A stretch of DNA of 63,999 nucleotides, filler included, from Stramenopiles sp. TOSAG23-3 (Eukaryota), in the NCBI GenBank assembly GCA_900128585.1. It is 19 parts of 19 records of this genome, joined end to end, with 100 filler letters (N's around TTAATTAATTAA, not from the genome) between each part and the next. Parts side by side here need not be neighbours in the genome. Positions count along the whole stretch, not along the records: positions 57,393 to 60,653 come from LT644323.1; 18 more parts are not named here. The stretch is one strand, 5' to 3'. Within the stretch, counting starts at the first letter, position 1; the number at the start of each line of letters is the position of its first letter. A program made the position numbers and the translations under genes. Shown in pieces: positions 15,485 through 63,999 of this stretch. Under the pieces are notes generated by a model. It saw only the letters and a program-made list of their open reading frames with translations, had not been told where the DNA came from and did no database searches.

Positions 15485-15588
15485 GACGGCGAAAGGTGCA
15501 TCTCCCCAAACTTACACTTTTAGTTATTTCACTTCACATTGTGCGCGGTATTTTGATCAGGAGAGATCGTTAATAATTATTTCGTATG

Positions 15589-17663: not shown

Positions 17664-17769
17664 AGTGGTTCGTTCTTTCTGGATCTTTTCAACGAGTAGA
17701 TTATAAATACATCACCACACCATTCGGTGAATTGAATCTTCCCCAAGTGAATAATATGATCAGATTCAT

Positions 17770-18259: not shown

Positions 18260-18952
18260 ATGGCAAGTAAACCTACACTTCACTACTTCGATGTAAACGG
18301 CAGAGGCGAAGTTAGCAAAATGGTCGCCGCAGTCGGTGGGCTCGATATCAACATTGTCGAGTATCCTTTTGTGGCAAATGGCGCGTCAGCGGCCGACAAG
18401 CTGAAAGCGGGTAAGGTTGAATCCGAGCATACGAAGGCTGCCACTGCAATGGGTATGGACGGCTGTGGGCTTCCGATTATCGTACACGATGATCTTAAGA
18501 TCAACCAAAGCTTTGCTTGTGCCAATTATTTTGCTAATATCGGTCCGAAATATCCGAAGGTTACCCCGAGTCAACGGGCCGTCGATGACATGTTTCAAGG
18601 TGCGCTGGAGGACTGTATGGGCCTCGCTGCCGGTGTCATACTCAGTGGTGGTGACCCAGCCCTGGTTCCAAAGGCTATGTCTAAAATTCTCACTCATCTG
18701 AGCAAGTATATTCCGGAAGAAGGATTCGTGCACGGTCATGACACGCCTACCATCGCCGACATATGCATTCTTGTCTTGACCCAAGCGTTAATACCTTTTG
18801 GCGCTACACTTGGTGAAGGTGCTGCTGCCTGCTACAGTCAGTTTCCCAAGGCTGTAGCCCTCGGAGAACGCACTGCTGCGTTTCCGGCAATTGCTGAATG
18901 GCTCAAAAATGAGAACTGTAATCTCAAAAAACCGCCACGTGCTAGTCGCTAG
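18260..18952 (+). CDS. Glutathione S-transferase (Tyr-type, sigma-like)
   Basis: LHYFDVNGRGE, GLPI, INQS and C-terminal PTIADI motifs. Confidence 0.88.
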   Translation: MASKPTLHYFDVNGRGEVSKMVAAVGGLDINIVEYPFVANGASAADKLKAGKVESEHTKAATAMGMDGCGLPIIVHDDLKINQSFACANYFANIGPKYPKVTPSQRAVDDMFQGALEDCMGLAAGVILSGGDPALVPKAMSKILTHLSKYIPEEGFVHGHDTPTIADICILVLTQALIPFGATLGEGAAACYSQFPKAVALGERTAAFPAIAEWLKNENCNLKKPPRASR

Positions 18953-20704: not shown

Positions 20705-20859
20705 GAAGTTAGAGTGCCTAATTGTACATTAATTATTTTTTCTCCTTGGTAAATTTAATCCTCAAATAAAAAAAAACAAATTATATAGAATATGCTGTTC
20801 TTTAGATTTAATATTTTTAATCTCTAGATTATCATTATTAGAAGCAGTCAGTGCTCTAA

Positions 20860-22374
20860 TTATTTTCCTTTGTGCTTATAACGTCCTTTTTTCGGCCCGT
20901 GCGATTTCCCATGCCTTTTTATGTGAGACTTATCTTCCTTTCTATAGCCCCGTCGCGCGTGGTTATGGTACCCTATCGGTTCGTGCTCCCTGGCGAAATC
21001 TAACCGGTCTTGAACAATCTTTTCGTGGGCCGCGTTTACATCAAACTCTTTCGTTAACTCCCTCCTTCGTTTACTCCAATACTTGACGCCCATCCCACTT
21101 TTCTTGCGGAGCTCTTCTTGCATCCATTGTGCGCCGTAGTACACCATTGAGGAATCGTGAGTGAGACGTACCCAGTCCTCAAAGTACAATCTCCCTTTGT
21201 CCAGCATGGAAGAGTACCCGCCCTGGCCCCGGCTGCCTTTTTCCTTCTGTTTCAAGAAATGGCGCATTTCCTTCAGCAAGTCATAGTTTACGTTACCACC
21301 ATGACCAGCATCATCTTCGTGGTGCCGCTGTGCGTGGTCAAATGCTTTCAGCCTGTCGCATATGGTGTCGACGTTTATGTATGGTTTGGGGTCGTTGGGA
21401 TCTGGTGGCTGATGGTACTGAAGCTCATGGAACGTGAAGTGCAAGAGCTCGTCCTCGTGCATCAAGCAAATGGTTTCGACCAAAGTGCAGAATTCTTTGA
21501 CGTCCAAGTACCCTGGCTTATCAGCACTACCGTAGTCATGGCAAATGCAATCCACGAACACGCTGGATGCGTACATTTCGTTGTCGTGTTCAAAATAATC
21601 CGACAAGTCTTGGTGAACAACTTGCCCGTTATGGTAAATATCGACTTTTTCAAACAAATGGAACATGCCGTTTAATACCTTGTCCGGATAATCGCCTATA
21701 AGCTTTGTGCTTATAAAAATAGACTGATCAAATTTTATCTCCCGGACCATTTTGTAGCTCTCGTCCCGAAGTATGTCTCGAAATGTCCACAGAAATATAG
21801 CAATTCGTTTTAAGTCCTCTGGCGGCAAGGGGGAGTGGTTGACCTTCTCGGCTACTCCCACTATCTTCAGCAACTCAGACAACTCGTCGACTCCAAGGTG
21901 ACCCTTCTTGTTCTTGTGCTGTTTCGGCGGTGCGTTCTCGACGTGTAAGATCTTCAATATTTGGTGGTAATGCTCACCTTTCATTTTCAGCTCCTTTCGC
22001 TTGTCAAACGTTAGCCCGTTCTTGGCGAACCGTCCGGCGTCACCCGGGCTCATCCCTTTGAACAAGTGAGCGTACTGTTTCATCCCATTCTTTTTCATTA
22101 GCTTCACTACGTTGAACTCGTGCTTGTCGCGATGCTTCGTCGCTGCTTCGTGGTGCTCTTCGTTGTTGTAAGATTTGCTTAGGGTAGGCATTCCTTTTAT
22201 GTGTGCCTTGTCCATAAAATGGAGGGTTTTGTGAAGCAGTGGTTCTTCCAGGCGCTGCCAATCCTCAAGTTGCTCGGGGATCGGTATTTGCGCTCGCCGG
22301 CAGCCCGCGTGCAGAGTGGATTTCCCCGAAAGGCCATGCGCTGCAATTTCCACTTTGGACGATAAACAACCCAT
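20860..22374 (-). CDS. N-acylated EF-hand protein with a SAM-like segment
   Basis: MGCLSSK acylation motif at ATG 22374. Degenerate EF hands (DIYHNGQV, DKPGYLDVKEF). GMKQYAHLF...KELKMKGEHYHQIL is SAM-like. Confidence 0.7.
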   Translation of the reverse strand: MGCLSSKVEIAAHGLSGKSTLHAGCRRAQIPIPEQLEDWQRLEEPLLHKTLHFMDKAHIKGMPTLSKSYNNEEHHEAATKHRDKHEFNVVKLMKKNGMKQYAHLFKGMSPGDAGRFAKNGLTFDKRKELKMKGEHYHQILKILHVENAPPKQHKNKKGHLGVDELSELLKIVGVAEKVNHSPLPPEDLKRIAIFLWTFRDILRDESYKMVREIKFDQSIFISTKLIGDYPDKVLNGMFHLFEKVDIYHNGQVVHQDLSDYFEHDNEMYASSVFVDCICHDYGSADKPGYLDVKEFCTLVETICLMHEDELLHFTFHELQYHQPPDPNDPKPYINVDTICDRLKAFDHAQRHHEDDAGHGGNVNYDLLKEMRHFLKQKEKGSRGQGGYSSMLDKGRLYFEDWVRLTHDSSMVYYGAQWMQEELRKKSGMGVKYWSKRRRELTKEFDVNAAHEKIVQDRLDFAREHEPIGYHNHARRGYRKEDKSHIKRHGKSHGPKKGRYKHKGK

Positions 22375-23713
22375 TATTTGCGCTTTCGCTCTTGTTTCGA
22401 TCAACAGTGTCAAACGTTTACGGTATATCGGGGGTGCTTGACATGTTGATTGGTTATTCATTTTATAGAAGACGCTGCTTCGTTGTTGGCGTTGGGTGAT
22501 TGTTCGTCCCTCAGCGGCGGTGGCGGTGGGTTAGTTGATAAGAAAAGTGTATTATTTTTATTATTATTATTAATTATATTATTATTATATTAAAATATAC
22601 CACCCACCAGTCTACTACGGTGGAACAGGTAGTATTAATATTATACCGGTACCGGTACAACAGGTTAAAATACCTGGTACGGCACCCGTACGGTATTAAT
22701 AGGTACTACCAATACTCTAAATAAACTACCTCGTCGTCGTCGTCGAGGAAAAGAAGAAGAAGAAGATGATTGTTGTTGTAATATTAACTATAAGGTAAGA
22801 AAGAAATAACTTCTAGGAGGTGTGATATCGAAGGAGGCATTAAGCGTTTTTATTTAGTATACATTTGTTATACTTATATATAGTATTAATATAATCCTAT
22901 AGAATAAGACTATTCATCACATCACAAATCTGTATTAAAAGGGAATACTATGTATTTACTTATTTGTTATATCTATATATAAATTTAGTATTGATTATTT
23001 GTATTCTAAACAGAGACCCCTTTGAGTTTGAGATGATGGTTCCAATTTTAGTAGAGGACTGACTGACTTTACATACTACTTACTGGTATTAATAATACAA
23101 TACAATCAATACAATAAGATTGAACTGTGGAAAAACAATCAAAAGACTTCTTCTCCTTCTTCTCTCCTCTTCTTTTGTTTTCTACTTCTTCTTCGTTGTT
23201 GGTTTTTTATTTATTACATTGGTTTAGTAGGTATTTCTATTTAATAGTATTCCTATGTACTATTAAAATATCAAATTTTGAACAATTCTCCTCTCCTCTC
23301 TCCTCTTCTCATAAATATCCCAAGATCATCATCATATTATTTATTATCCATCATCAACTAATAATAATTATAATTTTTTTAATAATAAAAATAATTAATA
23401 ATTTTTTTTCTTATTATAATAAATATTTTATTAATATATTATAAATACTATATAGACACATCATCATAATAATAATATATACCAACCAAATAAAAAAAAT
23501 TCTTCTCTTCTTCTTCTTCTTTGTTGGTATACTTTATTTTTTTATTACACAAAAAATAAGTTAGGTTACTTACTATCCATACCAGTAGTGAGTAAAAGTG
23601 AATCGTCTCTTATNNNNNNNNNNNNNNNNNNNNNNNNNNNNNNNNNNNNNNNNNNNNTTAATTAATTAANNNNNNNNNNNNNNNNNNNNNNNNNNNNNNN
23701 NNNNNNNNNNNNN

Positions 23714-23792
23714 ATTTCCTGTTTTCCTATTTAATGTTCGTACTGTATAATGTTTTTACATATACGGAAGTCTCCGTGAGAATACAGCGCTT
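23714..23792. repeat. 79-bp contig-terminal inverted repeat, left copy
   Basis: Exact reverse complement of 26918-26996. Confidence 0.95.
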
Positions 23793-24068: not shown

Positions 24069-26954
24069 ATGCAATCTTCCAAAATTCACATGAGTTCACA
24101 GTCCAGAAACAAATATTGCAAAGGTATTTCCGCCTCTGCCAGCCCGGGTGGTCGGGGGCGTACGGAAATATCAGTTTCGAGTGCGACTGCAAAGATGGCA
24201 CTGCGAAGGGTGAGTGTCGTAGGGACAATCCGAAAACGATTCCAGACAAACCTTCGTGCCCACCAGGACAAACTAACGAGAAACAAGAGATCGCTCGAGA
24301 GGAAAAAGTCTAACCTTGAATGTTTCCCACACACAAATGCGGAAAATATGCCGACAAAGCCACCCGATAGAAGAAACGTTAAGTCTTCGCTCCCAATTAT
24401 GAAGCAGTTGCAAGACGAGAAGCACTACAAGCACAACATACAAAGAATTATGGCAGACATAACTCAAGACTTCTCGAATAGACTGCTTCATAAAGATGAC
24501 AGTCGTTATGAAAACCTCTGTGCCCAGATTTCTGCAAAACGAGACCAGCGTGATAAACGGGAGAAAGAACAGGCGCAGGGAAAGGAAAATGCCCCGTTCC
24601 GGGTGCCCCCCTCGAAACTGGCGCAGCAAACCGTAACGTTGTTTTTAGGAAACCGCAGAAACAGCATTGCATCGAACTTGCTTTTGCAGCAACTTCACCG
24701 AAAGGGCCCGGCGAAATTACCGGACGATTCCCGTCAAATTTCTGCAAACAATAAGCTTAGAGAGGCAATACAAAAAATGCAGCGTACAATGAAAAGTAGG
24801 GATAGCATTGGAAAGTCCAAAACTACTTCTGGCGACATCAGGAGAGTGAAGGGCGGCGGCAAAGAGTACTCTCGCCGGGGCTCTGTCTGCTTACCGAGGG
24901 TATTGGGGAATGGGACGGCAAACGCTTCCCCAGAGACAAACGAAAAACTGCATCCATCCTTGCGGCCACTCCATTTGTTGGAAACTGTACAAAACATAGG
25001 TCCGTTCTCCCCCTTCAAAATGGATGAACTTCTCCAAATTGTACGAGTAATGGAGTGTGTCCAGTTGCCTCTGGGCGGAGCGCTCCGTGATGAAGCAGAG
25101 AAGATCGACCAGTTGGCCTCGGCAGGAGCGGGGTGGTTCTGCTACCTCCAGTCGGGTGTGTGCGCAACTTTCTGTCCGCGCACGGGTGAATGCACTAAAC
25201 AGTATCAAGCTGGAAGCTATTGGGGCGAAGATTATTTGATGTTTGACGAGTGCAACGGTTGCCCTAACGTAGTTGCCCAGACTCCGTCTACGGTGTGGAC
25301 ACTGTCGTCTGCAAATTTTCGATCGGCGATTGCAAAGCAGAACGAAGAGGCGTTTCGTGTGTTTAAACACTACATTGACTTCATCCCAAAATTGGCGAAT
25401 CGCCTGCAGACCTACGAAAGTGTTCACAATTTATTTTGTCTGTTCGATACGGAAACCTACAGCCCCGGGTCTGTTCTTCAAGCCGATGGTGCCGACAACG
25501 GTGGCACTCGAAAATTATATGTAGTCAAGCACGGCACAGTCAGATGGGTTAGGAAACTTTCAGAAAATTATCACGGTGGTAATTCAATGGCGATTCCACT
25601 GGAGAAGGAAGGCACCCTTCGTGCTGGTGGTATTTTTGGCATGTTTTACCTGCAACCGGACACGGAAGAGAACCGTACAAAGTGTACTGTGCCCACCACT
25701 TTGTTCGTCGACGATGGGGAAGGCGTGGAGTGCTTTACTGCCCCAGTGGATGTTTTGAAGCATTTTTTTGATAGCTCCTACGATCCCCTGAAACGGCAGG
25801 GTTGCCCTCGCGAGCCAAGGAGCCCCGCGTACTCCGTGCCTTGGCAATATCAACCACCCCGTCGAACATCGTCCAGTATTGCCGTGGCGAGCCTGGGGGC
25901 TCTTGACGTCGACCTATGCACAGTGAAAGCTCGCCTCAGGCAGGGTCGGTGGTCCTCTGAATTGGCAGTGGTAGAACAAGTGGGGAAAGACAGCGGTCGC
26001 AAAGCGTCGAGTTTTCATGTTCGTTGCATTCTGAAGAAGCGTATGGAAGCGGCAGAAAACTACGATCAGCTCTTGGAGGAAAGACGAAATGTTTTGCGTG
26101 TTCGCCACCCGTTCGTAATCCGACTGCGCAGGATCGGCGAAGACCCCGAAGCGTTGTACATGGCCTTCGAACCCGTCAAAGGTGGTACCCTAAGTCGTTT
26201 GTTGGAGAGACAATCGCTTGGGTACTTCCACCATGAGACCGCGCGCTTCTACGTTGCATCTATTATCCTAGTGTTGGAGCACCTTGCTTTGCTGAATATT
26301 GCTCACCGAGACCTCACGACTCGAAATGTGGGCCTGGACAAGCACGGCTATGTCAAAATCATGGGATTCCAGGATTCCAAAACGGTCGAACACCGAACAT
26401 TTACCCTGTGTGGTACACCTGCGTTTATGTCTCCGGAGATGATTCTGTTCAGGGGCTACGGCACGTCAACAGACGCATGGAGCCTTGGGGTGTTGGCCCA
26501 TGAGCTCCTGTTTGGAATAAACCCTTACGCTTGTTCATCTGACTTTAAGACATGCAGCAAAATTGTCAGCGGGGGCGCCCCGCAAATGGTAAACTGCCAC
26601 TCTAGCGTTGCTTCGAGGGATTTTGTATACCGTTTGCTGAAACCTAGGCCTAGTTTCCGCCTTGGTTGCGGAGTCCATGGTCCACGTGGGATGCGGAAGC
26701 ATAGTTGGTTCGAGGGGCTGGTGTGGGAAAAATTAAAACGGAAACGTACGAAAGCGCCTGTGTTGCTCCGGAGCTCACACAAAGGAAAGTCCAATTACGA
26801 AACAAAGTTCGACGGCGACTGTTTTAAAAATGGAAAGAGGCTGTCTCAATTCGTACGGTCGGAGCTATGTGGTGTTTGCCCACCTCGAGGGGGAGTACCA
26901 ACGTTGCCGTTGTTGAGAAGCGCTGTATTCTCACGGAGACTTCCGTATATGTAA
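24069..26954 (+). CDS. cGMP/cAMP-dependent kinase-like protein with two degenerate cNMP-binding domains and a degenerate AGC kinase domain
   Basis: TFTLCGTPAFMSPE, DAWSLGVL, RLGC and HSWFEGLVW are PKA/PKG-like. cNMP-like segments GSYWGE and KLYVVKHGTV. Catalytic motifs are altered. Confidence 0.85.
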   Translation: MQSSKIHMSSQSRNKYCKGISASASPGGRGRTEISVSSATAKMALRRVSVVGTIRKRFQTNLRAHQDKLTRNKRSLERKKSNLECFPHTNAENMPTKPPDRRNVKSSLPIMKQLQDEKHYKHNIQRIMADITQDFSNRLLHKDDSRYENLCAQISAKRDQRDKREKEQAQGKENAPFRVPPSKLAQQTVTLFLGNRRNSIASNLLLQQLHRKGPAKLPDDSRQISANNKLREAIQKMQRTMKSRDSIGKSKTTSGDIRRVKGGGKEYSRRGSVCLPRVLGNGTANASPETNEKLHPSLRPLHLLETVQNIGPFSPFKMDELLQIVRVMECVQLPLGGALRDEAEKIDQLASAGAGWFCYLQSGVCATFCPRTGECTKQYQAGSYWGEDYLMFDECNGCPNVVAQTPSTVWTLSSANFRSAIAKQNEEAFRVFKHYIDFIPKLANRLQTYESVHNLFCLFDTETYSPGSVLQADGADNGGTRKLYVVKHGTVRWVRKLSENYHGGNSMAIPLEKEGTLRAGGIFGMFYLQPDTEENRTKCTVPTTLFVDDGEGVECFTAPVDVLKHFFDSSYDPLKRQGCPREPRSPAYSVPWQYQPPRRTSSSIAVASLGALDVDLCTVKARLRQGRWSSELAVVEQVGKDSGRKASSFHVRCILKKRMEAAENYDQLLEERRNVLRVRHPFVIRLRRIGEDPEALYMAFEPVKGGTLSRLLERQSLGYFHHETARFYVASIILVLEHLALLNIAHRDLTTRNVGLDKHGYVKIMGFQDSKTVEHRTFTLCGTPAFMSPEMILFRGYGTSTDAWSLGVLAHELLFGINPYACSSDFKTCSKIVSGGAPQMVNCHSSVASRDFVYRLLKPRPSFRLGCGVHGPRGMRKHSWFEGLVWEKLKRKRTKAPVLLRSSHKGKSNYETKFDGDCFKNGKRLSQFVRSELCGVCPPRGGVPTLPLLRSAVFSRRLPYM

Positions 26955-26996
26955 AAACATTATACAGTACGAACATTAAATAGGAAAACAGGAAAT
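26918..26996. repeat. 79-bp contig-terminal inverted repeat, right copy, overlapping the kinase stop
   Basis: Exact reverse complement of 23714-23792. Confidence 0.95.
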
Positions 26997-27152: not shown

Positions 27153-27631
27153 ATCCCTACTCGTGGTATAAAATACATACTATATAATCAGTTTTTTTAA
27201 CTGTTGTTGGTACGAAGTAGTAGAAAAAGAAAAAAAACAAGTTAGGATTAGGGTTGGAACTCTGAAGAAATTGAAATTGATATAGAGACGACTACCAAGG
27301 GGTATTATTTAGACTAATAATAAAAAAAGCTTGATAGCTTTTGAGAGAGTCTTATAATGATGTAAATTATTATTAATAATAGTGCGGTTATATTATTATT
27401 TTGATCAAAATATACAAGTTTATTACGGATGAGAAGACGTTAGAGAATAATAACTTTCGAGCTATTCGACCGAAAGGGCGAGTCGATGCCACCGGTGTTT
27501 GGCCAGTAGCATTACGTATCCCTTACCTAACTTGGGAGGCTTTTGGAAAGTAGTAGTACATGTCAGACTACGATACATTTTGGATGAGCTAGACCTTGGT
27601 GAGTTTGGTGGTTGAGTGTCGTTTCGCGGAG

Positions 27632-29665: not shown

Positions 29666-29758
29666 AAAAACAAATTATATCTTCTAAAGTTATGATATTA
29701 GACACTAACTATTTTATTAAAAAACAAGAAAATTGGCTGTTATTTAAGTAATTAAATT
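29666..29758. repeat. Dispersed 3'-intergenic repeat, modules B and A
   Basis: aaaaacaaattatat at 29666; aaaacaagaaaattggctgttatttaagtaattaaa at 29721. Confidence 0.85.
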
Positions 29759-29761
29759 TAG

Positions 29762-29970
29762 CTTCGTCGTATTGAGACACAGTGGGAAAAGCCAAAATGC
29801 ATTGTCAAAGAGGAGGAAGAACGAGCTGAACAGTTGGCAAAAATCAAAATGGNNNNNNNNNNNNNNNNNNNNNNNNNNNNNNNNNNNNNNNNNNNNNNNC
29901 AAGATTCAGCGCGAGGAGGAAGAAGAGGAAAAGGCCAGAGAGGAGGCAAACCTTGAGGCGATGTTAGCGC
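29762..29970 (+). CDS. Isolated exon-like fragment (WW-domain tail plus Glu-rich coiled coil) spanning a scaffold gap
   Basis: LRRIETQWEKPKCIVKEEEERAEQLAKIK...KIQREEEEEEKAREEA, bounded by TTTAG and GTACGT. Confidence 0.4.
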
Positions 29971-31235
29971 GTACGTCGGTAATTTATTTTAAATCTTATT
30001 ATTCATATGTATATGATATATGATAACGCTTAATAGATAAAAACAAAATATTAATATCTAAAAATTTAGCTTACTCATACCTTCCTTCTTGAATATCTAA
30101 AGAACAGCCAAAATATTCTGTTTAATAAACAAAGTACGTGAACCTTTTTTAAATAATTCAAGCGAGGAACTAGCACGGAAGCGCGGGCAGGCACCTTCTC
30201 GACAGGAAATGATCAACAAGGCCAGCTTTTTATATCCTTGACAGTTCCGTCTCTTTATCCTCTGATGACCTGCCGCCCTTCTTGCAAAGTCCATTCAGGA
30301 TCAGTAGCGCCCCAATCAGACAAAATATCACTCCGCAGGACCACAGAATAGTACCTGCAAGCGTAATAGNNNNNNNNNNNNNNNNNNNNNNNNNNNNNNN
30401 NNNNNNNNNNNNNTTAATTAATTAANNNNNNNNNNNNNNNNNNNNNNNNNNNNNNNNNNNNNNNNNNNNAGTGACGTTTTTACGGGAAACACTTTGATAT
30501 ATTAGTAGTGTAGAGTGATTTACAAGTACGTAAATAAGATAGGAAATTCAACTCGAAAAAGATAAACACGAAGTTGCACCTGGTAAAAAGCAGGCGAACT
30601 ATCAAAAACAGGAAGAAAAACAACATATTGAGTTTTTTTTCTCTCTCTCCACTTTCCGATTTAAATGACTTCTACTCTATATAATTTGTTTTTCAAAAAG
30701 AAAAAATTGTATACTCTTGTATACATAAAGAGTTTTAGTTCTTTAACTTGTTTGTACTGTTTTTAAAAATCTTCTCTAGCTTTCGATTGGGTTCCACCTC
30801 GATTGTTTGATCCCGGGGTGGAGGAGCTTGTCTCGTACGCGCCGCGTACCGGAACCTAACGCGCCACCAATTCCCCTCTCCATACGCAAGAGGACCGAGG
30901 GAAGACGGACGCAATGATCCCGTTCAACATTGGGCCAGTGCCTTTACCGGATCGAACAAAGCAACATGGCGAGCCCACAAAAATTCCCAGCGACCCTAGG
31001 AGCCGTGACGACACGGAAAATGGCGTCGGTTGCTTGACCCAGAACGGACAAACTGCAGCAAACGAATCGGGGTCCGACCCCTCCACAGAGACAACTGGGG
31101 AAGAACGGCCAGCTCATGCCGGAATCAGATCCCCTCCAAAAGGAGAAAATTCCCCACGAATGCCGGGAGACAGCGACTTTGCAACCAAACAAGCCAGGAA
31201 ACCGCCGTCACGCACTCAATAAATAACAGACATTA

Positions 31236-31379
31236 AATTATTTTGTTTTGAAGACAAAATAATGGCTGCTATTTATGTATTTAAAAATGTAGAAAAAGAA
31301 AAAAGGGGGTGTCAGTTCAAGATCAAAATATCTCCTCCTGTTGCAGATCCTTCCAACTTCTGGTCAAAACTCCAATTGA
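31236..31379. repeat. Dispersed 3'-intergenic repeat, degenerate reverse B, A and D
   Basis: ggtgtcagttcaaga...tctcctcctgttgcagatcc...ttctggtcaaaactccaattg matches 58468-58507 and 63885-63937. Confidence 0.85.
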
Positions 31380-31555
31380 CTACTAAGCAGCGGCGTAATA
31401 ATATTTTTGAAGGTGTCCTGGTTCCACTCATTGAATATAATAAGAATATGTTTTCTTAGACCTTAGCATTTAATCAAGAGTGCTGTGTGACGCAACGTTC
31501 TTCTGAGCTCACGCCTCTCCTGTTCACCAAATTCTGAGATCTACAGAGACAGGCA

Positions 31556-32854
31556 TCAACTTCTTTCCCAATCCAACTTATATAAATCTTTCCGCTTCTG
31601 CTTGCCCACTGGTATATTTTCCCTAACCTCTTCGACATTCGCGAAATCTATATCACAGAGTATAATATCAGAATTATGTCCAGTTGTTGCAATTACATCT
31701 CCCCACGGTGAAATTACTGTTGAGTGTCCCCATGCATGATATGAGGCATCCAAATTTCTTGCTGGGGAAACAGTTGCAACATAAACTTGGTTGTCGACTG
31801 CTCTTGCTCTCTGCAAAAGTTCCCAGTGTGCTGGACCTGTTGTCATGTTAAATGCACCTGGAAAGACCAAAAGTTTGCATCCTTCTTCTCGCATAATCAT
31901 GCTTTGTTCTGGAAAACGTATATCATAGCAAATGCCAACCCCAACTTTACCTTGGGGCATTTCAAATGTAGTCAATGAATTACCGGCTGTCAATATATCA
32001 GATTCCTTGAAAGTTATACGGCCAGGGACATCGATATCAAACAAATGGACCTTCCTGTGTTTGCCAACTATTTTTCCATGTGGGGAAATTATTACAGACG
32101 TATTATATATACTACCATCTGAGGCGATTTCCGGTATGCTTCCACCTATGATGTAAACCCGATGATGAACAGCAGCCTCGATTAACATGGTAGTTGAGGG
32201 GCTCAGATCCACATTTAATTCTGATACGGATGAAGGAATAACCTCGGCATACTTTGGAAATGACGACGTATCATAAGGGCACTGAAAACATTCTGGTAAA
32301 GCTACAAGATCCGCCCCACCCCGTACAGCATAGTCAATAGCACTTCTGGCAAGCACCAAATTAGCAGCTTTGTCCTTCCCAACCGAGATTTGACATAAAC
32401 CTAGGCGAAGTTTTTTTTTTGAGTTATCGCCCGCTTTGAAAACCTCATCGTTTTTCGGCAGTTGAACGTTTGTTTTCGCACCTTCAAGCGCAGAAGACAA
32501 AGAATTCACACGTGTTTCTAAATCGATTATTGTCTCAATGTTTGACAGCGCTTTTGAAATATCTGATATTCCAAGTTCAGAGTGGCTACTGCGCTGTGCA
32601 CTATCAGCAAGTGAAACGACCCCGAGACTAGCCAAAGTCGCACTGCTGAAGAGAGTAAATAAGCTATTTGGCCAGATACCCTTTTTGTATGCTTTCGTAG
32701 AGAGTGAGAACGTGGAGCGAGCCGACATTCTCGTGGCCTCACTAATAGAAGAAATAGGTTTGGCTTCCTGGACCAATAGGGATCTGGAAAAGCGATTTGC
32801 AAAAAGTGCACCACGGCGGAGAACAGGGGGACCACGAGGGAATAGGTGCGACAT
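31556..32854 (-). CDS. NIT2: Omega-amidase (nitrilase family) with a long N-terminal targeting extension
   Basis: E-K-C triad in ALPECF, HRKVHLFD and GICYDIRF; also GAFNMTTGPAHWELLQRARAVDNQ. Confidence 0.93.
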   Translation of the reverse strand: MSHLFPRGPPVLRRGALFANRFSRSLLVQEAKPISSISEATRMSARSTFSLSTKAYKKGIWPNSLFTLFSSATLASLGVVSLADSAQRSSHSELGISDISKALSNIETIIDLETRVNSLSSALEGAKTNVQLPKNDEVFKAGDNSKKKLRLGLCQISVGKDKAANLVLARSAIDYAVRGGADLVALPECFQCPYDTSSFPKYAEVIPSSVSELNVDLSPSTTMLIEAAVHHRVYIIGGSIPEIASDGSIYNTSVIISPHGKIVGKHRKVHLFDIDVPGRITFKESDILTAGNSLTTFEMPQGKVGVGICYDIRFPEQSMIMREEGCKLLVFPGAFNMTTGPAHWELLQRARAVDNQVYVATVSPARNLDASYHAWGHSTVISPWGDVIATTGHNSDIILCDIDFANVEEVRENIPVGKQKRKDLYKLDWERS

Positions 32855-33840: not shown

Positions 33841-34110
33841 AGAAAACAAAAGAAGAAAACAAAAGAAGAAAACAAAAGAAGAAAACAAAAGAAGAAAACA
33901 AAAGAAGAAAACAAAAGAAAACAAAAGAAAAGAAAAGAAAAGAAAAGAAAGAAGAGAAAAGAAAAGAAAAGAAAAGAAAAGAAAAGAAAGAAGAAAAGAA
34001 AAAAGAAAAGAAAAGAAAAGAAGAAAAGAAAAGAAAAGAAAAGAAAAGAAAAGAAGAAAAGAAAAGAAAGAAAGGAAAAGAAAAGAAGAAAGGAAAGGAA
34101 AGGAAAGAAA
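33841..34110. repeat. (AAAAG)n-type purine microsatellite
   Basis: Seen directly at the contig start. Confidence 0.97.
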
Positions 34111-38134: not shown

Positions 38135-39940
38135 TTACTCTTCCGTCTCGTCCACAAACTCTGGGACGGCACCAACTTTCCCAACCCTCCACCCTTTGAA
38201 CTTTTCCCGGGGGGTCGCGATGGCGGAGACCTGCGGGGTCGCGATGGTGGAGACCTGCGGGGTCGCGATGGCGGCGGCCTGCGGGGTCGCGATGGCGGCG
38301 ATCAACGCGGCCCCCTTCCCAGAGCCGTCAGGGGACAACTCCAACTTAATGTTCTTTTTGTCGCCAAACATTTCCAAAAGAGCAATCTGCATGTTCTCTT
38401 TGAAGAATGGGTAATGCTCGAACACCGACCCGTCGATCGCTACGGTGCAACTATCTTCTTTGTGGATTTTTCGGATGACCGCCCCGATGGCCGCCGCCGA
38501 CAACCGTGCTGCGCGCGTGGACACCATGTCGCACACGTCCCTCAGGACCGCTTTGTCTGACTCGGATGTGCTCGACCAGAGGCGCCAAAAATTTGCGAAG
38601 CGCTCGACCTCCTCCTCGTTCACGCCTTTGGCCCTTGCGAGGCTTTTGCACAGCTCGACGGTGTACTCCCCCTGCCCCGCTTTGGCGGCGGCCTGCTTCC
38701 ACGGGTTGTTCTCGTCCACCTCGGCGCCCCCGCCTTGGATGAGGGACATCATTGGGGTCAAAAAGGCGTGGGGGGACGTGAACACGCGGTCGACCAGGTC
38801 CTTGGCCCCGCCCTCCCGGTTCGAAAACAAAGCGTTCTCTTCGCGCAGCCGCTGGCACGCGATCCTTGCAATTTCCCCCAGGTACCGCCCACTGATCTGT
38901 TTCTCAAACCGCTGCTGCCCCGGGTGCTCATCAGCGTCGATCGCGGCATCGATGCTGTTCCACATGCCAGGGATCTTGTTCGAATCGAACGCTCCCCACT
39001 CCATGTTGATGATGACCTTGTCCTTTCCCGCGGGGGCATCGTCCCACTTCGTCACGTTGGCAATGTCCTCCACGTAGCACGCGTTGCACCCCGTGCCCAG
39101 AATGACACCGAGCACGGTGTCCGGCGCTTCGATGACGTGCGCCACCAGCGTTCCCACGGTGTCGTTCACCAGGGCAGCCACGTTCACGTTGATCGAGCTC
39201 TTCTCGAACGCCTGCTGGAGCAGCCCGACGACGTCCTCCCCCTCCACCCCTGGGGTATGGAACCCTTTCGTCCAATGCACCAGGGAGCCGGCATTCAGCG
39301 CGTACTGGGTGCACGGGAAGGAAAACGTAAACCCAAGCGGCAAAGGCTTGCCGCCGTTGTCCCCGGCGGGCAGGGCTGCGACAGTGTCTGCAATGAACTG
39401 AAACAGGGCCTCTCCCGAGCTCTCTTTCGACATAGTGTTGGCCGGTATTTTCGCTTTCTTCGACGCCGCCAGCGAAACTTCCCCATCCTTCAGCTTGAAA
39501 CGCAGGACGCGAAAGTTGCTCCCTCCCAAATCGAGCGCTAAAAATTCCCCGTCTTCTTTCCCGGTCGGAAGGTCGCAGACGTACGACGGGAGCATTTTAA
39601 ACATGCACCCGTCCTTTTCCAGCCCCCTCTCCATCTCGACCGTCATGTCCGCCGCTATCTTTTCCAGCAGCTCCACGGGGGTGTCAAACTCGAGCTGCAA
39701 CTTTTTCAATTCAAAGGACGTGCTCTCGACGTCCAGCGAGCTGGAAGCAGGGGCAAGCTTCACCTCGTCGCACCGTGCAGGCTCAAAGACAGACGGGGAC
39801 AATTGGGATTCAAATGCAGCCACCCAACCACTCCGTTGGGCGTGACTATCGGCGAACGACTGGGACCACACACCATAACCGAGCGCGGCACTGGCAGCCG
39901 ACGCCGCAGCAACCCGGGCACGGAGCGCAAAAGTTGCCAT
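38135..39940 (-). CDS. HXK: Hexokinase with a mitochondrial-type N-terminal extension
   Basis: LALDLGGSNFRV, LGFTFSFPC, WTKGF, VNDTVGTL, ILGTGCNACY, INMEWG, FEKQISGRYLGE and DGSGKGAA motifs. Confidence 0.97.
   Translation of the reverse strand: MATFALRARVAAASAASAALGYGVWSQSFADSHAQRSGWVAAFESQLSPSVFEPARCDEVKLAPASSSLDVESTSFELKKLQLEFDTPVELLEKIAADMTVEMERGLEKDGCMFKMLPSYVCDLPTGKEDGEFLALDLGGSNFRVLRFKLKDGEVSLAASKKAKIPANTMSKESSGEALFQFIADTVAALPAGDNGGKPLPLGFTFSFPCTQYALNAGSLVHWTKGFHTPGVEGEDVVGLLQQAFEKSSINVNVAALVNDTVGTLVAHVIEAPDTVLGVILGTGCNACYVEDIANVTKWDDAPAGKDKVIINMEWGAFDSNKIPGMWNSIDAAIDADEHPGQQRFEKQISGRYLGEIARIACQRLREENALFSNREGGAKDLVDRVFTSPHAFLTPMMSLIQGGGAEVDENNPWKQAAAKAGQGEYTVELCKSLARAKGVNEEEVERFANFWRLWSSTSESDKAVLRDVCDMVSTRAARLSAAAIGAVIRKIHKEDSCTVAIDGSVFEHYPFFKENMQIALLEMFGDKKNIKLELSPDGSGKGAALIAAIATPQAAAIATPQVSTIATPQVSAIATPREKFKGWRVGKVGAVPEFVDETEE
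38211..38300 (-). repeat. 24-bp coding tandem repeat (about 3.7 copies, xIATPQxx)
   Basis: ggggtcgcgatgg(c/t)gg(a/c)g(a/g)cctgc units. Confidence 0.95.
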
Positions 39941-40369: not shown

Positions 40370-40410
40370 AGAAAGAAAGAAAGAAAGAAAGAGTCGAAAG
40401 AAAGAGTCGA

Positions 40411-40446
<36 letters not shown>

Positions 40447-40650
40447 GTCGAAAGAAAGAAAGAAAGAAAGAAAGNNNNNNNNNNNNNNNNNNNNNNNNNN
40501 NNNNNNNNNNNNNNNNNNTTAATTAATTAANNNNNNNNNNNNNNNNNNNNNNNNNNNNNNNNNNNNNNNNNNNNAGAAGAAGAAGAAGAAGAAGAAGAAG
40601 AAGAAGAAGAAGAAGAAGAAGAAGAAGAAGAAGAAAGAAGAAGAAAGAAG
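40370..40650. repeat. (GAAA)n and (GAA)n microsatellites at two contig ends either side of a linker
   Basis: Seen directly. Confidence 0.95.
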
Positions 40651-40681
40651 AAAAAAGAATATAATTTTTATTAAATCAAAA

Positions 40682-42872: not shown

Positions 42873-42995
42873 TAAGAGTCTTACCTCGTAATTTCTTTTG
42901 ATTAAACGAAAAGCGTCACATTCCCATGAAACATGTTACAGTCATACAACTTTGTAGTAAAAAAAACAAATTATGTAGTAATACTATACTCTTAC
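42873..42995. repeat. Dispersed 3'-intergenic repeat, F-like and B modules
   Basis: aagagtctta at 42874; aaaaaacaaattatgtag at 42962; lies between the convergent golgin and Rab18 genes. Confidence 0.55.
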
Positions 42996-45209: not shown

Positions 45210-45297
45210 TATCCGTGCGTACACACGCGGTTGTAAAGGCAAAAATGCAAAATATGAAAATACGAGCACAGTACAAAGTAAGTTTTAGGGAAATCTT

Positions 45298-45462
45298 AAA
45301 ACAAGAAAATTGGCTCTGTTATTTAAAAGTAAATAAAATTAATGTACTGCGAACTGAAATCTACAAAAAACGAAGAGAGAGGTTTTTAATATTTTTACAC
45401 AAAGTGTGTACTCAAAAAATTTAATTCTTCGTATACAATAAAAAAAAACAAATTATATATAG
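45298..45462. repeat. Dispersed 3'-intergenic repeat, modules A, C and B
   Basis: A variant at 45298. 45334-45362 is an exact 29-bp reverse complement of 63963-63991. B at 45445. Confidence 0.88.
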
Positions 45463-45662
45463 TTAATATTTGTTTTTACACATGTTTCAGTGTTTTTCTA
45501 ATCAGGAAGTATATCTTTTGGGTAAACAGTTCTGTCGTATCTAGATGTCAGAGCGCATATATTTAGGTTGTAAGAGTTGTTCGTAAAATCCCAGTTTAGG
45601 CAACTGCTTCATACACACAAAGGAAAAACTCACTTTTTGGTAAAAGGAAAAATTAACTGTTT

Positions 45663-56438: not shown

Positions 56439-57025
56439 ATGACTGACGGCGGTGTTTTAGATCGTCTGCTGGGTGCGCAGCCTGTGCTTTATTCTGCGAT
56501 ATCTTCTGCTGCAGAGTACCAACGCCAAATATTTGGTGTTCAGGCCCAACAGCATAATTTTGTTAAAAACAACGGTTACCAGGCCACAGCCCATGGTAAG
56601 TACGCCAATCGCGACATGGCACAGCTGTGCTCCTCTATTTTTTTTTGCGGATGGATTGCCACAGGTTGTGCGGGGCAGGCCGTTTGGGCCTTGCAACGGT
56701 TTATAAAAAGGGACGGGCATAAAATTGGAAGTATGAATAGATATACAATTGGAAAGTTGGCCTTACACAGTACCTTTCTTGTCCCAACTGTAATGTTTGC
56801 GTATGTCGCAGTGCTGAATGAAAGAGCAATAAGTTGTAATAATATGTTCAATTCATCAATAGACGACGAACGTTCGGGGTATTGAAAATTGTCTCAAAAA
56901 AAGAGCGTCTGCTTAAAGAACAACAACTGTTGGAAAAACAAATGGCTGATATGGCTGAACGAATGGCTGAAATAACCGAAGAGTTAAATAATTTAAAACA
57001 AGAAAATTGGCTGTTATTTAAATAA
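56439..57025 (+). CDS. Small membrane protein with a C-terminal coiled coil, two exons (56439-56800 and 56863-57025), 174 aa
   Basis: A 62-nt GTATGT...CAATAG intron at 56801-56862 links the ORF in frame to RRTFGVLKIVSKKERLLKEQQLLEKQMADMAERMAEITEELNNLKQENWLLFK*. Confidence 0.7.
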
Positions 57026-57177
57026 TTTATAAACATTAAAAAATGATTCCTAAGCTTTTTTATTTCTTTCTAAACTTTCTTTTACAGCTACAACATTATC
57101 TTGTGATTTTTACAAATTAAAAAAAAAAACAAATGCACCAACATGTTCTCGCAATATTTTGAGAGAGAGGTCGGTGT

Positions 57178-57392: not shown

Positions 57393-57923
57393 CGGCTGAT
57401 TGCGGAGGAAGACGCGGGGATGAACGAGCTCCAGGCCCTTATGGCAAACAGGGTCTCCGAGGATGAAGGGCGACGTTCGCTATTTACCAGAGGAAATAAT
57501 CGACTGTCCCGTCGCATTCTGAAGGGGGCTCTGAAGGGGGGCTCCAAGCCACCCCCCGCGTGTGGGTTCGGGGAGAAGGAAAACAGGAACCCGTCTTGCT
57601 GCGATGACAGTAGCGTGAACCGTGACGAGGACGAAGATTTTATGTTGGACATGCACGATGTTCGAGAAGGGATCCGAAATGTACAGAGGTCCAACGTGAA
57701 GGTCGGCTTACGAGAGGAAAAGGACGAGGCGGACCTTGTCTTTGAACTGGACGAGAACGAAGTGGACGAAATCTCGGAAAAGGTCCTGTTTGAGGTGTAC
57801 GGGGTTAACCTGGGGTCGCAAATGATCCGACCACGCCACACCCTGTTCAAGAGAGAGCAACCCTTTGAGTTCGACAGGCTCGATGATGTTCACCCCTACG
57901 TGAGCAGCGGTTATGAACCTTGA
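57393..57923 (+). CDS. Hypothetical protein, 5' partial
   Basis: Frame open from the contig edge, GC-rich, followed by AT-rich DNA. Confidence 0.7.
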   Translation, partial: RLIAEEDAGMNELQALMANRVSEDEGRRSLFTRGNNRLSRRILKGALKGGSKPPPACGFGEKENRNPSCCDDSSVNRDEDEDFMLDMHDVREGIRNVQRSNVKVGLREEKDEADLVFELDENEVDEISEKVLFEVYGVNLGSQMIRPRHTLFKREQPFEFDRLDDVHPYVSSGYEP

Positions 57924-58062
57924 ATCATTCCATGTTTTGGACCAGTTGAACCCCAGGGTACACCAATGATTATTTGATTTTTACTCAAAGTGGGGTTACA
58001 AGAGAGTTTAATTTCCCATTTCGCGGAGAAAGGAAAAAAAAGAGTTAAGTGTTCTCTCTTTT

Positions 58063-58507
58063 AAAAGCAAGAAAATCGGCTGTTATTTAAGTAAAATATC
58101 ATATTAAAATTACTATATAATTAGTTTTTTTTTTTTAAATTAAAATAATGTACTGCGAGCTGAACTCTAGATTTAGACAATTCGAGGTTTACATTCTCTC
58201 TTTTTAAACCAATTTTAAAAAAACAAATTATCTTATCATAAACAAATTATATACTAAAAAATTGTTTGAGACAGTGGGTATTATTGTTTTGTTGAGCCCT
58301 GGCTCTATCCCAAACGTATTATGATGATTATAATGATGAGTTTCTTTCAAGTCGTATACTATCTTATCATATGATATTTAAAAACATACTATATAATTTG
58401 TTTTTAAAAGCAAGGAAAATTGGCTGTTATTTTTTATAGTAGTAATTAAAATTAAAGAAAAAAAGAAGGTGTCAGTTCAAGAACAATGTCTCCTCCTATT
58501 GCAGATA
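58063..58507. repeat. Densest cluster of the 3'-intergenic repeat (A, C, B, B, reverse B, A, D)
   Basis: A at 58063 and 58406; C at 58146; B at 58220 and 58240; reverse B at 58380; D at 58468. Confidence 0.9.
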
Positions 58508-58713
58508 TTTAAAATATGATATTATTATTTTTTTTTAAATATTTACTCGCGTGTACACACACTTTTAAAAAAAATAGAGGTGAGGAGTGTGTTTTTAAAA
58601 GAGAAAAAGGTCAAGACATTTTTGCAGTTCTTGGCATCTATCTTAAATTTCTAATTTTTTCCACACAACAACAACAACAACAAACACCTCCCCCTCTCTC
58701 TCTCCTTCCCTTT

Positions 58714-59670
58714 TTAACCGATCTGACTCATTCGTTTCATCTGCTTGCGCGTCTTTTTAAGTTCGTTCAGGTCCTTTTTTGTGCGAATGATTCCCAGGGA
58801 CATGTCAATCCCATCGGAACGAGAAAGATTGTTCCCCATATTTCCCATCATCCACATCTTGCCAGCGTATTCATTCGTTTGAAGCTCTTCGTTCTTCGGC
58901 AATGGAAAACTTTTGGTGTCATCCTTGTTCCATCGCTTTGGTTTGAAGTTGGGGTTTCTATCGATGCTTTTCATATAAATAACGTCGGGGCAGGACAATT
59001 CGTACTTCCGATCGTATTTGCTAACGTAGAGCTCCCCAAACCCGTGGTGGTCGAAATTGCGGAGACCCCTATTGTTCACATCGGAATGAATGGACGCGTT
59101 GTAGTCCTGTTTAAAGAAGGCTCGTTTTGGCTCCCTGCACGCAACGTTGTGGTAGCAAGACTTCTCGATTTCCGACGTCGGAGATTTCGCCCGGAAATTC
59201 TCGTAGTACCGGTCCGATGAGTACGCGAAGTGCGAGTCTCGAAGAAACGAATTTCTCAAATCGTTCGCCCGCGGCCTTGGGATTATGTGGGTGTCCGACA
59301 CCGTCGGGCCCGGGGGGGGGTAGACGGTCTTATCAAACGATTTTGTCGTGGAATGTCTCAAATGAATGTCGCTCTCTTTCCTGTTCCCGGTGCTCATTTT
59401 GTGCGAGACCAGTATGTTCTTTGCGTATATGTGCTTGTTCTTTTTCCCCACTTTTGATGGCAAATGAATGTCCGACCTGGACCGTCTAAAATTAAAGTTT
59501 CTCCTCTGCCTCTCTATGCCGTAGTAGTCGGGCATGTTAACCTGTGGAACGTAACTCTTCTCGGAGAATGTACTAACATTGAACTTTGGCTTGACCCATT
59601 TCCCTTGCCCCTCGCTCCCATTCCCCAACACCGCGGCACTCCTGCTTGTTTTAATCGGCGAAAACGACAT
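58714..59670 (-). CDS. Hypothetical basic protein
   Basis: 318-aa ATG ORF in a GC-richer island; no family recognised. Confidence 0.72.
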   Translation of the reverse strand: MSFSPIKTSRSAAVLGNGSEGQGKWVKPKFNVSTFSEKSYVPQVNMPDYYGIERQRRNFNFRRSRSDIHLPSKVGKKNKHIYAKNILVSHKMSTGNRKESDIHLRHSTTKSFDKTVYPPPGPTVSDTHIIPRPRANDLRNSFLRDSHFAYSSDRYYENFRAKSPTSEIEKSCYHNVACREPKRAFFKQDYNASIHSDVNNRGLRNFDHHGFGELYVSKYDRKYELSCPDVIYMKSIDRNPNFKPKRWNKDDTKSFPLPKNEELQTNEYAGKMWMMGNMGNNLSRSDGIDMSLGIIRTKKDLNELKKTRKQMKRMSQIG

Positions 59671-60197
59671 TTATATATTTACTGTATTATTTTTAATATT
59701 ATATAAAGTACTATATTAACGTGGGTTCTAATGTTTCCTTCAAACGTATTCTATCCACCACCAAATTGCAATCAATACCTTCGATTTCAACTCTTTCCCC
59801 TTTCTCTCTCAAAAAGTAAAAGAAGAAAAAAGGATGCCCACTACACTTGCTTACTTGCTTCTTGTTTTCTTTTCTTTCTTCTTTCTGGTATTTACCTGTA
59901 GTCTGTAGTATTAAACAAGATTTTGTTAAAAAACGAATATAAAATTAAAAAATGTTCAACTTTTACATTACCTTAATGTAACGTAATCTACAAAATAAAT
60001 GCATTTCTACAATATACTATGTAAAACTATAATTATAGTCCATTTGAACCGTGCCGAAATTGTTCCATAGTAAGAAAAGTACATGGTATTGTTTATGAGT
60101 TATTTATAGATTCTTACGACGATTTCATGGATCATTCTCATGCATCATGTTATAAATAGGGTTGGAGTTCAACATAGAAAGAGCACTGAGTAACGTT

Positions 60198-60331
60198 GAG
60201 GTAGCATCGTATAATATAAACACAGCATAGGAATATAATTAATAAAGGTGAGGTAGCATCGTATAATATAAACACAGCATAGAAATGTATTTAATAAAGG
60301 TGAGGTAGCATTGTATAATATAAACATAGCA
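60198..60331. repeat. 52-bp tandem repeat, about 2.6 copies
   Basis: gaggtagcatcgtataatataaacacagcatag... starting at 60198, 60250 and 60302. Confidence 0.93.
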
Positions 60332-61032
60332 TTGTTTAAAGTATGAAAAATGTACGTTGAATCCAAGTGAGTAGAAAAGCTTTGATTTAAGGTGAGGATG
60401 CCTTTTGGTATTTTAATGTAATTAATTTTTATGAAGGAATCGTTAGTTTTGTCTCTTTATTTGTTTGAATTCTTTATTTATTTTCTTCCTTTGAGTACAT
60501 TTGTATAATATAACAATGTCCTTAATTATAAATATGATAAGAAACAAAAGATAACTAACCATATTTTTTATTCTACCAATAATAAAAGATCAATCAACAA
60601 ACCAGAGAGAGAAGTGGTAGACTTTGGCATGTAAGAAAGAATTATGAAAAGAANNNNNNNNNNNNNNNNNNNNNNNNNNNNNNNNNNNNNNNNNNNNTTA
60701 ATTAATTAANNNNNNNNNNNNNNNNNNNNNNNNNNNNNNNNNNNNNNNNNNNNAGAAAAAGAAAAAGAAACAAATAGAATAGAATTAATATAGAAATAAA
60801 ACTAATAAAGAAAACGAAAAAATAATAATAATAAAAAAAAAGAACAGAAACAAAAGAAAGAAACAAAAAAAGTAACAAAAGAGAAAGGGACAGAAACAGA
60901 AACAGAAAACAAACAATGACACACGAATCCCCAGCGCAGAGGAGAGGAAACAAAACGAAAGGGAACGGAAACACCATTTATTAGTCTGGTTTATTGTAGT
61001 TTGTTTTTAATATTAGTATTAACGAACGAACG

Positions 61033-63809: not shown

Positions 63810-63999
63810 AAAAACAAATTAGATATAGAGTTAATAACTCCCTGTAAAAACAACTTTCTGAAAAAAATCGTAGTCGTCTACAACATATCTCCTCCTATTG
63901 CAGATCCTCCCCAAGTTCTGGTCAAGATTCCAATTGGCAAGTTGTTAATTTCATATATTTTAAGATTTCAGTTCGCAGTACATTAATTTTAATTACATA
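63810..63999. repeat. Dispersed 3'-intergenic repeat, modules B, D and reverse C
   Basis: aaaacaaattagatatag at 63811; D at 63885-63937; reverse C at 63963-63991. Confidence 0.88.

Follow-up and report, generated by a model that had tools for sequence, protein, structure and literature searches.

Introduction

What are the short sequence modules that crowd the DNA between two convergent genes of Stramenopiles sp. TOSAG23-3, and why do they recur almost only behind genes? The question is raised by positions 57924-58713 of a stretch of 63,999 nucleotides from this genome (NCBI GenBank assembly GCA_900128585.1), here called the window. An earlier reading made from the letters of the window alone (the sequence-only reading) had distinguished seven modules, A to G, and had offered two explanations: a mobile element that targets gene 3' ends or survives only there, or a lineage-specific code for termination or 3' processing. 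We conclude that the modules are probably copies of a single non-autonomous retroposon family, made through RNA and put in place by target-primed reverse transcription. The first explanation is supported by target-site duplications (TSDs), a fixed end, truncation, nesting and avoidance of gene 5' sides. The family is previously undescribed, and the kind of mobile element is already known; the module motif was not found in a full-text search over about 8.4 million articles and preprints, and among the papers listed by literature searches there was no precedent for 3'-restricted retroposons in compact protist genomes.

Recurrence of the modules

The window consists of 19 contigs of about 3.25-3.29 kb each, placed in order of length and joined by spacers of 44 N, 12 nt and 44 N, with two internal N gaps; the modules had been said to lie on independent contigs, and this is correct. 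Modules A to G do recur at the positions reported before. Module A (20-mer, at most 3 mismatches) is matched at 15734 and 15758 on the minus strand and at 29726, 57000, 58069 and 58413 on the plus strand, six matches against 0.01 expected, and none of 100 shuffled sequences reached this count. A copy at 45298 with a 2-nt insertion and a degenerate copy at 31255 were seen in alignment; an A-like match at 36996, with 3 mismatches, looks like chance. Module B (16-mer, at most 2 mismatches) has 13 matches against 0.14 expected. The sites given for it before were recovered, except 58220, for which 58239 is the better match, and four were added (1893, 6507, 27180 and 58113, all minus strand). Module C is found at 45341, 58147 and 63967 (reverse complement), D at 31331, 58489 and 63888, F at 1873, 15658 and 27345, and G at 15626 and 27252. 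Module E, a 48-nt match of 87.5% identity between 1758-1802 and 15877-15830, is not placed in the element. All-against-all blastn of the contigs gave eight main loci: 1758-1918, 15580-15877, 29667-29760, 31222-31378, 45293-45475, 56979-57065, 58047-58510 and 63811-63999.

A degenerate 20-nt pattern of module A was scanned over public metagenome contigs and found at least 132 further loci, 80 of which were taken with up to 2.5 kb on each side (L-numbers below denote such loci). Together with the window copies, 151 instances of A, falling into 115 clusters (90% identity over 150 nt), were counted among the matches listed. Their neighbours are unrelated host genes, with one multi-copy ORF family among the 274 open reading frames (ORFs) of these loci. 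The element's tails, described below, turned up in many separate assemblies, and 15 studies contributed RNA and DNA runs that contain them.

This breadth bears on the possibility that the modules are an assembly artefact, that is, chimeric contigs joined at shared low-complexity sequence. In its favour are the fragmented state of the assembly, the repeats in which several contigs end, and perfect inverted termini of 79 nt on two contigs. An artefact is nevertheless hardly credible, since these tails recur across many independent assemblies and the runs of 15 studies, and RNA contigs span both gene and module.

Structure of the element

The modules are not separate units: a few longer sequences contain them as continuous stretches. 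Modules C, D, F and G are not free-standing and form pieces of the sequence behind two tails. These tails are alternative fixed ends, one of which every copy keeps: the type A tail, (A)3-12 CAAGAAAATTGGCTGTTATTT, or the type B tail, (A)4-12 CAAATTATATAGTATGTTTTAAGACTCTCA, which comprises modules B and F, contiguous with each other. On the sense strand of the element the tails read …TTG(T)n, and the homopolymer there is a T run, not poly(A). A stack of 144 non-identical copies has a sharp left edge at (T)(T)AAAAAC, in which the A run is variable, and then the block TTAAAAACAAGAAAATTGGCTGTTATTTAAGTAATTAAAATT; similarity decays past about +35.

Three or more body subfamilies are distinguished in alignments, all beginning with the tail. 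In subfamily 1 the A tail is followed by module C, in subfamily 2 by …TTTAGCTTCGTCGTA (as at 29721), and in subfamily 3 by module D (as at 31255, 58406 and 63888); the body of the B tail includes module G and has internal sequence in common with subfamily 2. All bodies lead into a single multi-copy gene, of which they match, in reverse complement, the 3' untranslated region (UTR) and C-terminal codons (…SDEEVDYGS…).

The product of this parent gene has 744-776 amino acids (aa; P0121, 744; P0122, 776) and 265 mostly fragmentary metagenome relatives among the 50% representatives. One stretch of it is rich in Cys and His (…CPCLK…C…HFIGCKSHGLHFYPH…), and its tail is acidic and Ser-rich. The gene is seen at L031 (511-2490) and also at L057, L024 and L015; L031 has two tandem copies, each ending in a tail. 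No domain was found by Pfam search in the multi-copy ORFs, in P0121 and P0122 or in 69 relatives, a polyketide-synthase domain in one relative being set aside because that relative is unrelated. A sequence profile of the parent protein found no relative in PDB (a single chance match, E=0.49), and a protein atlas returned clusters without names only; zf-RVT clusters (score 0.86, 146 shared features) fell below the level that counts.

Outside the window, at L010 (1864-4713), seven or more copies of the family, overlapping or nested, make up most of a convergent spacer of 2.85 kb, which has no long ORF. Coding DNA at this locus is AT-rich (34% GC overall), unlike that of the window, and the family seems to be common to relatives that differ in base composition.

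Signs of insertion

Copies share one end and differ at the other. With a profile of family 1, 82 of 83 ascertained matches start at model position 12 or lower, with ends spread over 35-348; for non-ascertained matches the figure is 25 of 53, many of the remainder being subfamily-2 copies, in which the A tail stands on a different linker. Alignments of the three subfamilies likewise have a common start at the tail and differing end points. Copy length ranges from 25 to about 340 nt where bounded by TSDs and reaches at least 430 nt in alignments.

Duplications of the target were counted for 123 non-duplicate A copies, with a permutation control for the expectation. Exact flank repeats of at least 10 nt were found at 33 copies (4.7 expected); adjacent flank repeats with at most one mismatch were found at 45 copies for lengths of at least 9 nt (14.7 expected) and at 30 for at least 11 nt (4.0 expected). 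The duplications are AT-rich and variable in length (9-15 nt). The inserts that they define are mostly short: 24 of 45 measure 25-70 nt, and six are a bare tail of 25-26 nt. From 33 reconstructed empty sites the nick consensus is (A/T)TT^AAAA, with T at -2 in 22, T at -1 in 24, A at +1 in 19 and A at +3 and at +4 in 20. A fixed 3' end, variable truncation, duplications of variable length and an AT-rich nick are together the hallmark of target-primed reverse transcription.

The target consensus is recreated at the insertion junction (…TT|AAAA…) and in the linker GTAATT^AAAATT, so that new copies land in or beside old ones, which gives tandem tails and a mosaic look. B tails inserted into A copies with duplications of their own, of 10 nt at L001 and 13 nt at L017, are clean single cases.

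The convergent region 57924-58713, bounded by the stop of a plus-strand ORF at 57923 and that of a minus-strand ORF at 58714, is resolved in this way into at least five nested or abutting insertions, in which the modules follow in the order A+, B-, C+, B+, B-, A+, D+. An A-C copy lies at 58052-58204, with its tail on the left and the element sense on the minus strand; the 131-nt insert (58063-58193), whose body corresponds to family-1 model positions 37-99, stands between two copies of the 11-nt duplication TTCTCTCTTTT (58052-58062 and 58194-58204). Nested in it between modules A and C is a plus-strand B tail, …CTATATAATTAG followed by T12, at 58102-58134 (extents approximate). A B-type copy on the minus strand follows at 58229-58370, with a 120-nt insert (58240-58359) between 11-nt duplications TATCTTATCAT (58229-58239 and 58360-58370). 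A short B tail in the opposite orientation, …CATACTATATAATTTGTTTTT (58376-58405, plus strand), stands tail to tail with a minus-strand A-D copy of subfamily 3 (58406-58506), which consists of tail A, a linker and module D, and beyond 58506 subfamily similarity stops. A repeat of TGTTTTTAAAAG at 58399 and 58590 is an uncertain duplication, as the subfamily-3 similarity is already over at 58506. RNA contigs of other loci follow the window over 58258-58359 and part from it precisely at 58359 (three runs); a further set parts from it at 58506, and insertion boundaries at these positions agree with both.

Two other origins for such repeats are addressed by the same data. Miniature inverted-repeat transposable elements (MITEs) or other DNA transposons would have module A, with or without C, as their terminal inverted repeat (TIR), and the mosaic would arise from subfamilies sharing TIRs. 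Some arrangements look like this: L031 2489-2847 has A at both ends, inverted, with 37-nt arms of 81% complementarity; two copies of about 300 nt at L010 are inverted, with about 1.4 kb between their inner ends; and the contig at 60754-63999 ends in an inverted C/A. Yet 12 distinct sources contain at least two exact A copies, and the copies point the same way in 11 of these and opposite ways in one (L091), so that TIRs at both ends are not the rule. The far end of the copies is variable and carries no second TIR, the duplications vary over 9-15 nt where a superfamily would have a fixed length, the inverted tail pairs are head-to-head neighbours, each with its own body, and no transposase lies between the L010 copies, an interval without a long ORF. 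A DNA transposon is thus very improbable, and this origin is largely refuted.

The second origin, a 3' UTR that a multigene family conserves and that segmental duplication or gene conversion has spread without transposition, would account for bodies that are the 3' end of a multi-copy gene, and for the two tandem copies at L031 that each end in a tail. Most copies, however, are pieces of 25-150 nt beside unrelated host genes and have flanking duplications of their own, and neither duplication nor conversion generates target duplications of 9-15 nt at each site; this origin is given a slightly smaller chance still than a DNA transposon.

Position relative to genes

The restriction of the modules to gene 3' sides is strong. 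In the window, spacers were classed between ORFs of at least 90 aa, called greedily; the window had not been selected for modules. Regions bounded by gene 3' ends only (18 regions, 5746 nt) hold 20 motif matches in 9 regions, those bounded by 5' ends only (19 regions, 8312 nt) hold a single match, a B tail located at 30677, and those between tandem genes (8 regions, 2825 nt) hold two. This corresponds to 3.5 matches per kb in 3'-only and 0.12 per kb in 5'-only regions, and to 9/18 against 1/19 module-bearing regions (Fisher p=0.003). One exception was seen by eye and not by the motif scan: a B-family copy at about 27170-27355 lies upstream of a plus-strand ORF that starts near 27593, although the contig begins at 27097 and a gene 3' end to the left is possible.

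The gene context of module A was read from exact copies whose source is 1 kb or longer, 94 in all and 90 after four duplicates from overlapping records were dropped. Among the matches listed, 46 of the 90 lie between convergent genes, 18 between tandem genes and none between divergent genes; those with a single neighbour face its 3' end in 18 cases and its 5' end in four, and four copies lie inside called ORFs, two of which are only 94 aa long. In three or four of the 46 convergent cases, the neighbour is an ORF that belongs to the element itself. The 46:0 contrast has a binomial p of about 3e-14, and a codon-usage gene caller gave 46 convergent, 12 tandem and 1 divergent (n=88, again among the matches listed). 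Spacers of the same metagenome loci that had not been chosen for module A follow the same order: five module matches in 8 convergent regions (2232 nt), two in 27 tandem regions (8574 nt) and none in 16 divergent regions (6842 nt).

The claim that the modules lie almost only behind genes, mostly between convergent ones, is therefore borne out by the densities in the window, by the at least 132 loci with their 46 convergent and no divergent copies, and by the unselected spacers; the three upstream regions that the sequence-only reading had named as lacking copies have no motif match.

TTAAAA sites are 2.4-2.9 times denser in 3' regions, part of the excess being supplied by the elements themselves. 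As the excess is only of this size, target supply alone cannot yield the difference of about 30-fold in density. With retroposition as the preferred account, the 3' restriction would come mainly from purifying selection against insertions in the promoters and coding DNA of a compact genome, and self-seeding of target sites would help it.

It is unlikely that the element is actively directed to gene 3' ends or convergent DNA, or that its tail has been recruited as a portable, bidirectional poly(A) or terminator cassette; in either case the tails would be more than insertions that the genome tolerates. In the cassette variant the tail, which has AAGAAA on one strand and AAATAAC on the opposite strand, may separate the convergent genes of a compact genome. 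To our knowledge, gene 3' ends or convergent intergenic DNA are not a target class of elements without long terminal repeats (non-LTR elements).

Transcripts

RNA was looked at for one locus, with contigs, which cannot show true RNA ends. Contigs from poly(A)-selected or oligo-dT metatranscriptomes of four studies run from the plus-strand gene 57420-57923 into module A and end at 58078, 58080, 58089 and 58109, in or just after the module. Modules are thus seen inside 3' UTRs in RNA contigs. The summed depth of module k-mers is 17-301 against 7-19 for the unique part of the gene (3-36 times), so that modules sit in many transcripts. RNA contigs of other loci do not stop at A and continue through it for 34-131 nt. 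No RNA contig covers the minus-strand gene 58714-59670, and no poly(A) loose end is listed.

The tail is A/U-rich in both directions, with AAGAAA on one strand and, on the antisense, AAATAAC about 20 nt before the tail end. AAGAAA on the A strand and …CTTGTTTT on the other strand may be 3'-end signals of the tail, and the ends of the RNA contigs at this one locus are a weak hint that the tail can serve as such a signal.

All four RNA runs differ from the window at the same two points inside the ORF 57420-57923: 12 nt are deleted at 57518, and a G is replaced by A at 57615; this is strain or allele variation common to the transcribed populations.

A genuine 3'-end code, in which the modules would be polyadenylation or termination signals under selection, whether or not they were first mobile, draws on these transcripts: location is strictly 3', the modules are transcribed in 3' UTRs, and contigs of the gene 57420-57923 from four studies stop in or just after A. 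The view is from one locus, in contigs that cannot show RNA ends, and contigs from other loci pass through A. Tandem-context A copies, among the matches listed, are oriented 10 to 8 relative to the neighbouring gene, and the distance of A copies from the stop varies from 3 to more than 600 nt, so that neither orientation nor spacing is fixed; half of the 3' regions of the window (9/18) have no module; and identity over 25-30 nt, TSDs and nesting fit recent insertion and not a conserved signal. We therefore regard such a code as improbable, and the proposal of a lineage-specific termination or 3'-processing code is not retained as the primary explanation, given the orientation of 10 versus 8 and modules in 9 of 18 3' regions. 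The tails may still have a secondary, co-opted part in the formation of 3' ends: for one gene, RNA contigs end at module A.

Comparison with known elements

The element would be copied through an RNA intermediate, with endonuclease (EN) and reverse transcriptase (RT) supplied in trans by an unseen long interspersed nuclear element (LINE). Insertions are found at TT^AAAA, the fixed tail end being retained and the other end cut at variable length; each insertion creates new target sites, and this leads to nested, mosaic spacers. Copies in gene 3' flanks are transcribed as part of 3' UTRs.

Features of non-LTR retroposons are present: TSDs of variable length, a shared 3' end with variable 5' truncation, and a homopolymer tail (3-12 A before CAAG/CAAATT). 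The tails that short interspersed nuclear elements (SINEs) carry are described, in a passage of PMC8825457, as poly A, poly T or of low complexity, with TSDs of 8-16 nt, and part of PMC6007223 deals with short retroposons that share the 3' tail of a partner LINE, tail sharing and TSDs being the signatures.

The family is most like truncated LINEs and LINE-dependent short retroposons, such as Au-like SINEs with the tail of an RTE LINE, in its common 3' end, variable 5' truncation, variable-length TSDs, a short 3' tail common to subfamilies whose bodies differ, and its enrichment in the vicinity of genes. It differs from them in that no partner LINE or RT is seen and there is no head of RNA polymerase III (Pol III) type; the body comes from a protein-coding gene, the tail is …TTG(T)n without poly(A), and many copies measure only 25-60 nt. 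L1-type target-primed reverse transcription has the consensus TT|AAAA, and the nick (A/T)TT^AAAA with AT-rich duplications of 9-15 nt is like it; L1-mobilised copies end in poly(A), whereas here there is a short sense-strand T run. Processed pseudogenes and retrogenes are likewise the 3' part of an mRNA-like transcript with target duplications, but the copy number is far too high for a passenger mRNA (at least 132 loci with one tail, about one copy per few genes of the window), there are two alternative tails, and the tail alone is enough for insertion. With MITEs the family has in common that it is short, non-coding, AT-rich and gene-associated and breaks assemblies; it has no regular terminal inverted repeats, and the length of its duplications varies.

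The looser analogy with bacterial repetitive extragenic palindromes and interspersed mosaic elements (REP/BIME) is not upheld. Like these, the modules are short, vary in order and orientation and lie between convergent genes. The host is a eukaryote, however; the modules are neither palindromic hairpins nor otherwise structured, and the mosaic consists of nested truncated insertions with their own target duplications. Folding of the A and B tails found no stable structure (z-scores +0.41, +0.91 and +1.42, and -2.25 for the antisense strand of B only).

Several observations weigh against retroposition. No RT or EN domain was found by Pfam in the parent protein or in 69 relatives, nor any RT or EN by clustering among the 274 ORFs of the fetched loci, and the ORF that adjoins the tail is not an RT, unlike that of a LINE. 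No poly(A) tail is retained, and it is unusual that the fixed end has a homopolymer of T on the sense strand. A search for a Pol III head was negative: the window has no match in Rfam and no tRNA by ARAGORN, and the bodies are antisense to a protein-coding 3' end. Stringent LINEs use a stable tail hairpin, and none was seen here (fold z +0.4 to +1.4, with -2.25 for B antisense only). Duplications of 9 nt or more are seen at only 45 of the 123 copies, and chance would supply about 15 of them; B tails exceed the expectation weakly (7 of 34 against 3.2). No filled and empty orthologous pair was found among the fetched loci, long matches being only to overlapping or identical records. Target supply may explain part of the 3' bias. 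Retroposition by target-primed reverse transcription is still the account that we consider likely.

Further copies in the window

Clear TSDs flank five copies in the window, the two at 58052-58204 and 58229-58370 and three others. At 56986-57028 (minus strand) a 25-nt A tail alone (56995-57019) stands between two copies of AAATAATTT, a minimal insertion. At 1830-1921 (plus strand) a 68-nt B-family copy (1842-1909) with module F, ending in …TTTTGTTTTT, stands between two copies of CATGTTGTAGCT, and at 6495-6533 (plus strand) a B tail of 17 nt (6506-6522) between two copies of AACACGTACTA.

The other copies are as follows. A nest in a convergent region at 15586-15782 has a B tail at 15586-15615, an opposite B-family copy with modules G and F at 15626-15709 and tandem A tails, 24 nt apart, at 15734-15782. 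An A tail with the first 25 nt or so of subfamily 2 (…TTTAGCTTCGTCGTA) lies at 29718-29770 (minus strand). The degenerate A tail with a subfamily-3 D body at 31247-31420 (minus strand) is 136-309 nt behind the stop of the minus-strand ORF 31556-32854. Between convergent ORFs at 45295-45460 (minus strand), an A-C copy (45295-45363) is followed by a B tail (45437-45460). A B-like tail with a D body (63811-63940) is followed by an inverted C/A-linker (63958-63999) that runs off the contig end, the whole spanning 63811-63999. Solo B tails, both on the minus strand, lie at 20765-20788, behind the stop of the minus-strand ORF 20860-22461, and at 42955-42978, between convergent ORFs with stops at 42735 and 43060. 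The one clear example upstream of a called ORF, at 27170-27355 (plus strand), has a B-family tail (27170-27198) and body pieces G and F.

Source of the window and other repeats

ORFs in the window are long, uninterrupted and GC-rich, with AT-rich spacers between them, and the genome is intron-poor. The encoded proteins are eukaryotic and include a hexokinase, a Rab GTPase, protein kinases, a BET bromodomain protein and a RING protein. The hexokinase (38135-39940, minus strand) has 98% identity to a metagenome protein, followed by relatives of 67% and 61% from other metagenomes; its best-scoring named relatives are animal tandem hexokinases (35-39% identity; at most 38% for the top named match), and the protein collection contains no sequenced organism closely related to this lineage. 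The contig 57393-60653 is contained in DNA and RNA runs labelled marine or seawater metagenomes, and the source is therefore an uncultured marine protist.

Two contigs start with the reverse complement of their own last 79 bases (3394-3472 and 6607-6685; 23714-23792 and 26918-26996; 100% over 79 nt), which has the look of an artefact of de Bruijn assembly, through a hairpin or overlapping k-mers, and not of biology. Long purine-rich, microsatellite-like tracts of (GAAAA)n, (GAAA)n and (AAG)n are found at 33841-34110, 40370-40474, 40575-40664, 60754-60970 and 13576-13674; they stand 5' of genes, at the start or end of a contig, and contigs seem to break at them; they are without similarity to the retroposon tails. 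At 17769-18077, upstream of the plus-strand ORF 18260-18952, three direct copies of a unit of 63-105 nt (at most 90% identity, period about 100 nt) are unrelated to modules A to G.

Implications

If the element were actively directed to its sites or its tail used as a cassette, the parent protein of 744-776 aa might belong to a new machinery of retroposition or targeting. For the retroposon family itself, the finding means that a family abundant in a lineage of uncultured marine protists fills much of the DNA between convergent genes and accounts for many assembly breaks, and that an apparent 3' code becomes a readable history of insertions. The 46 convergent against 0 divergent copies, among the matches listed, are a natural experiment on the tolerance or attraction of insertions in a compact eukaryotic genome. 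With tails in many 3' UTRs, the family could influence mRNA ends, and the tails are a simple marker for contigs of this lineage in marine metagenomes.

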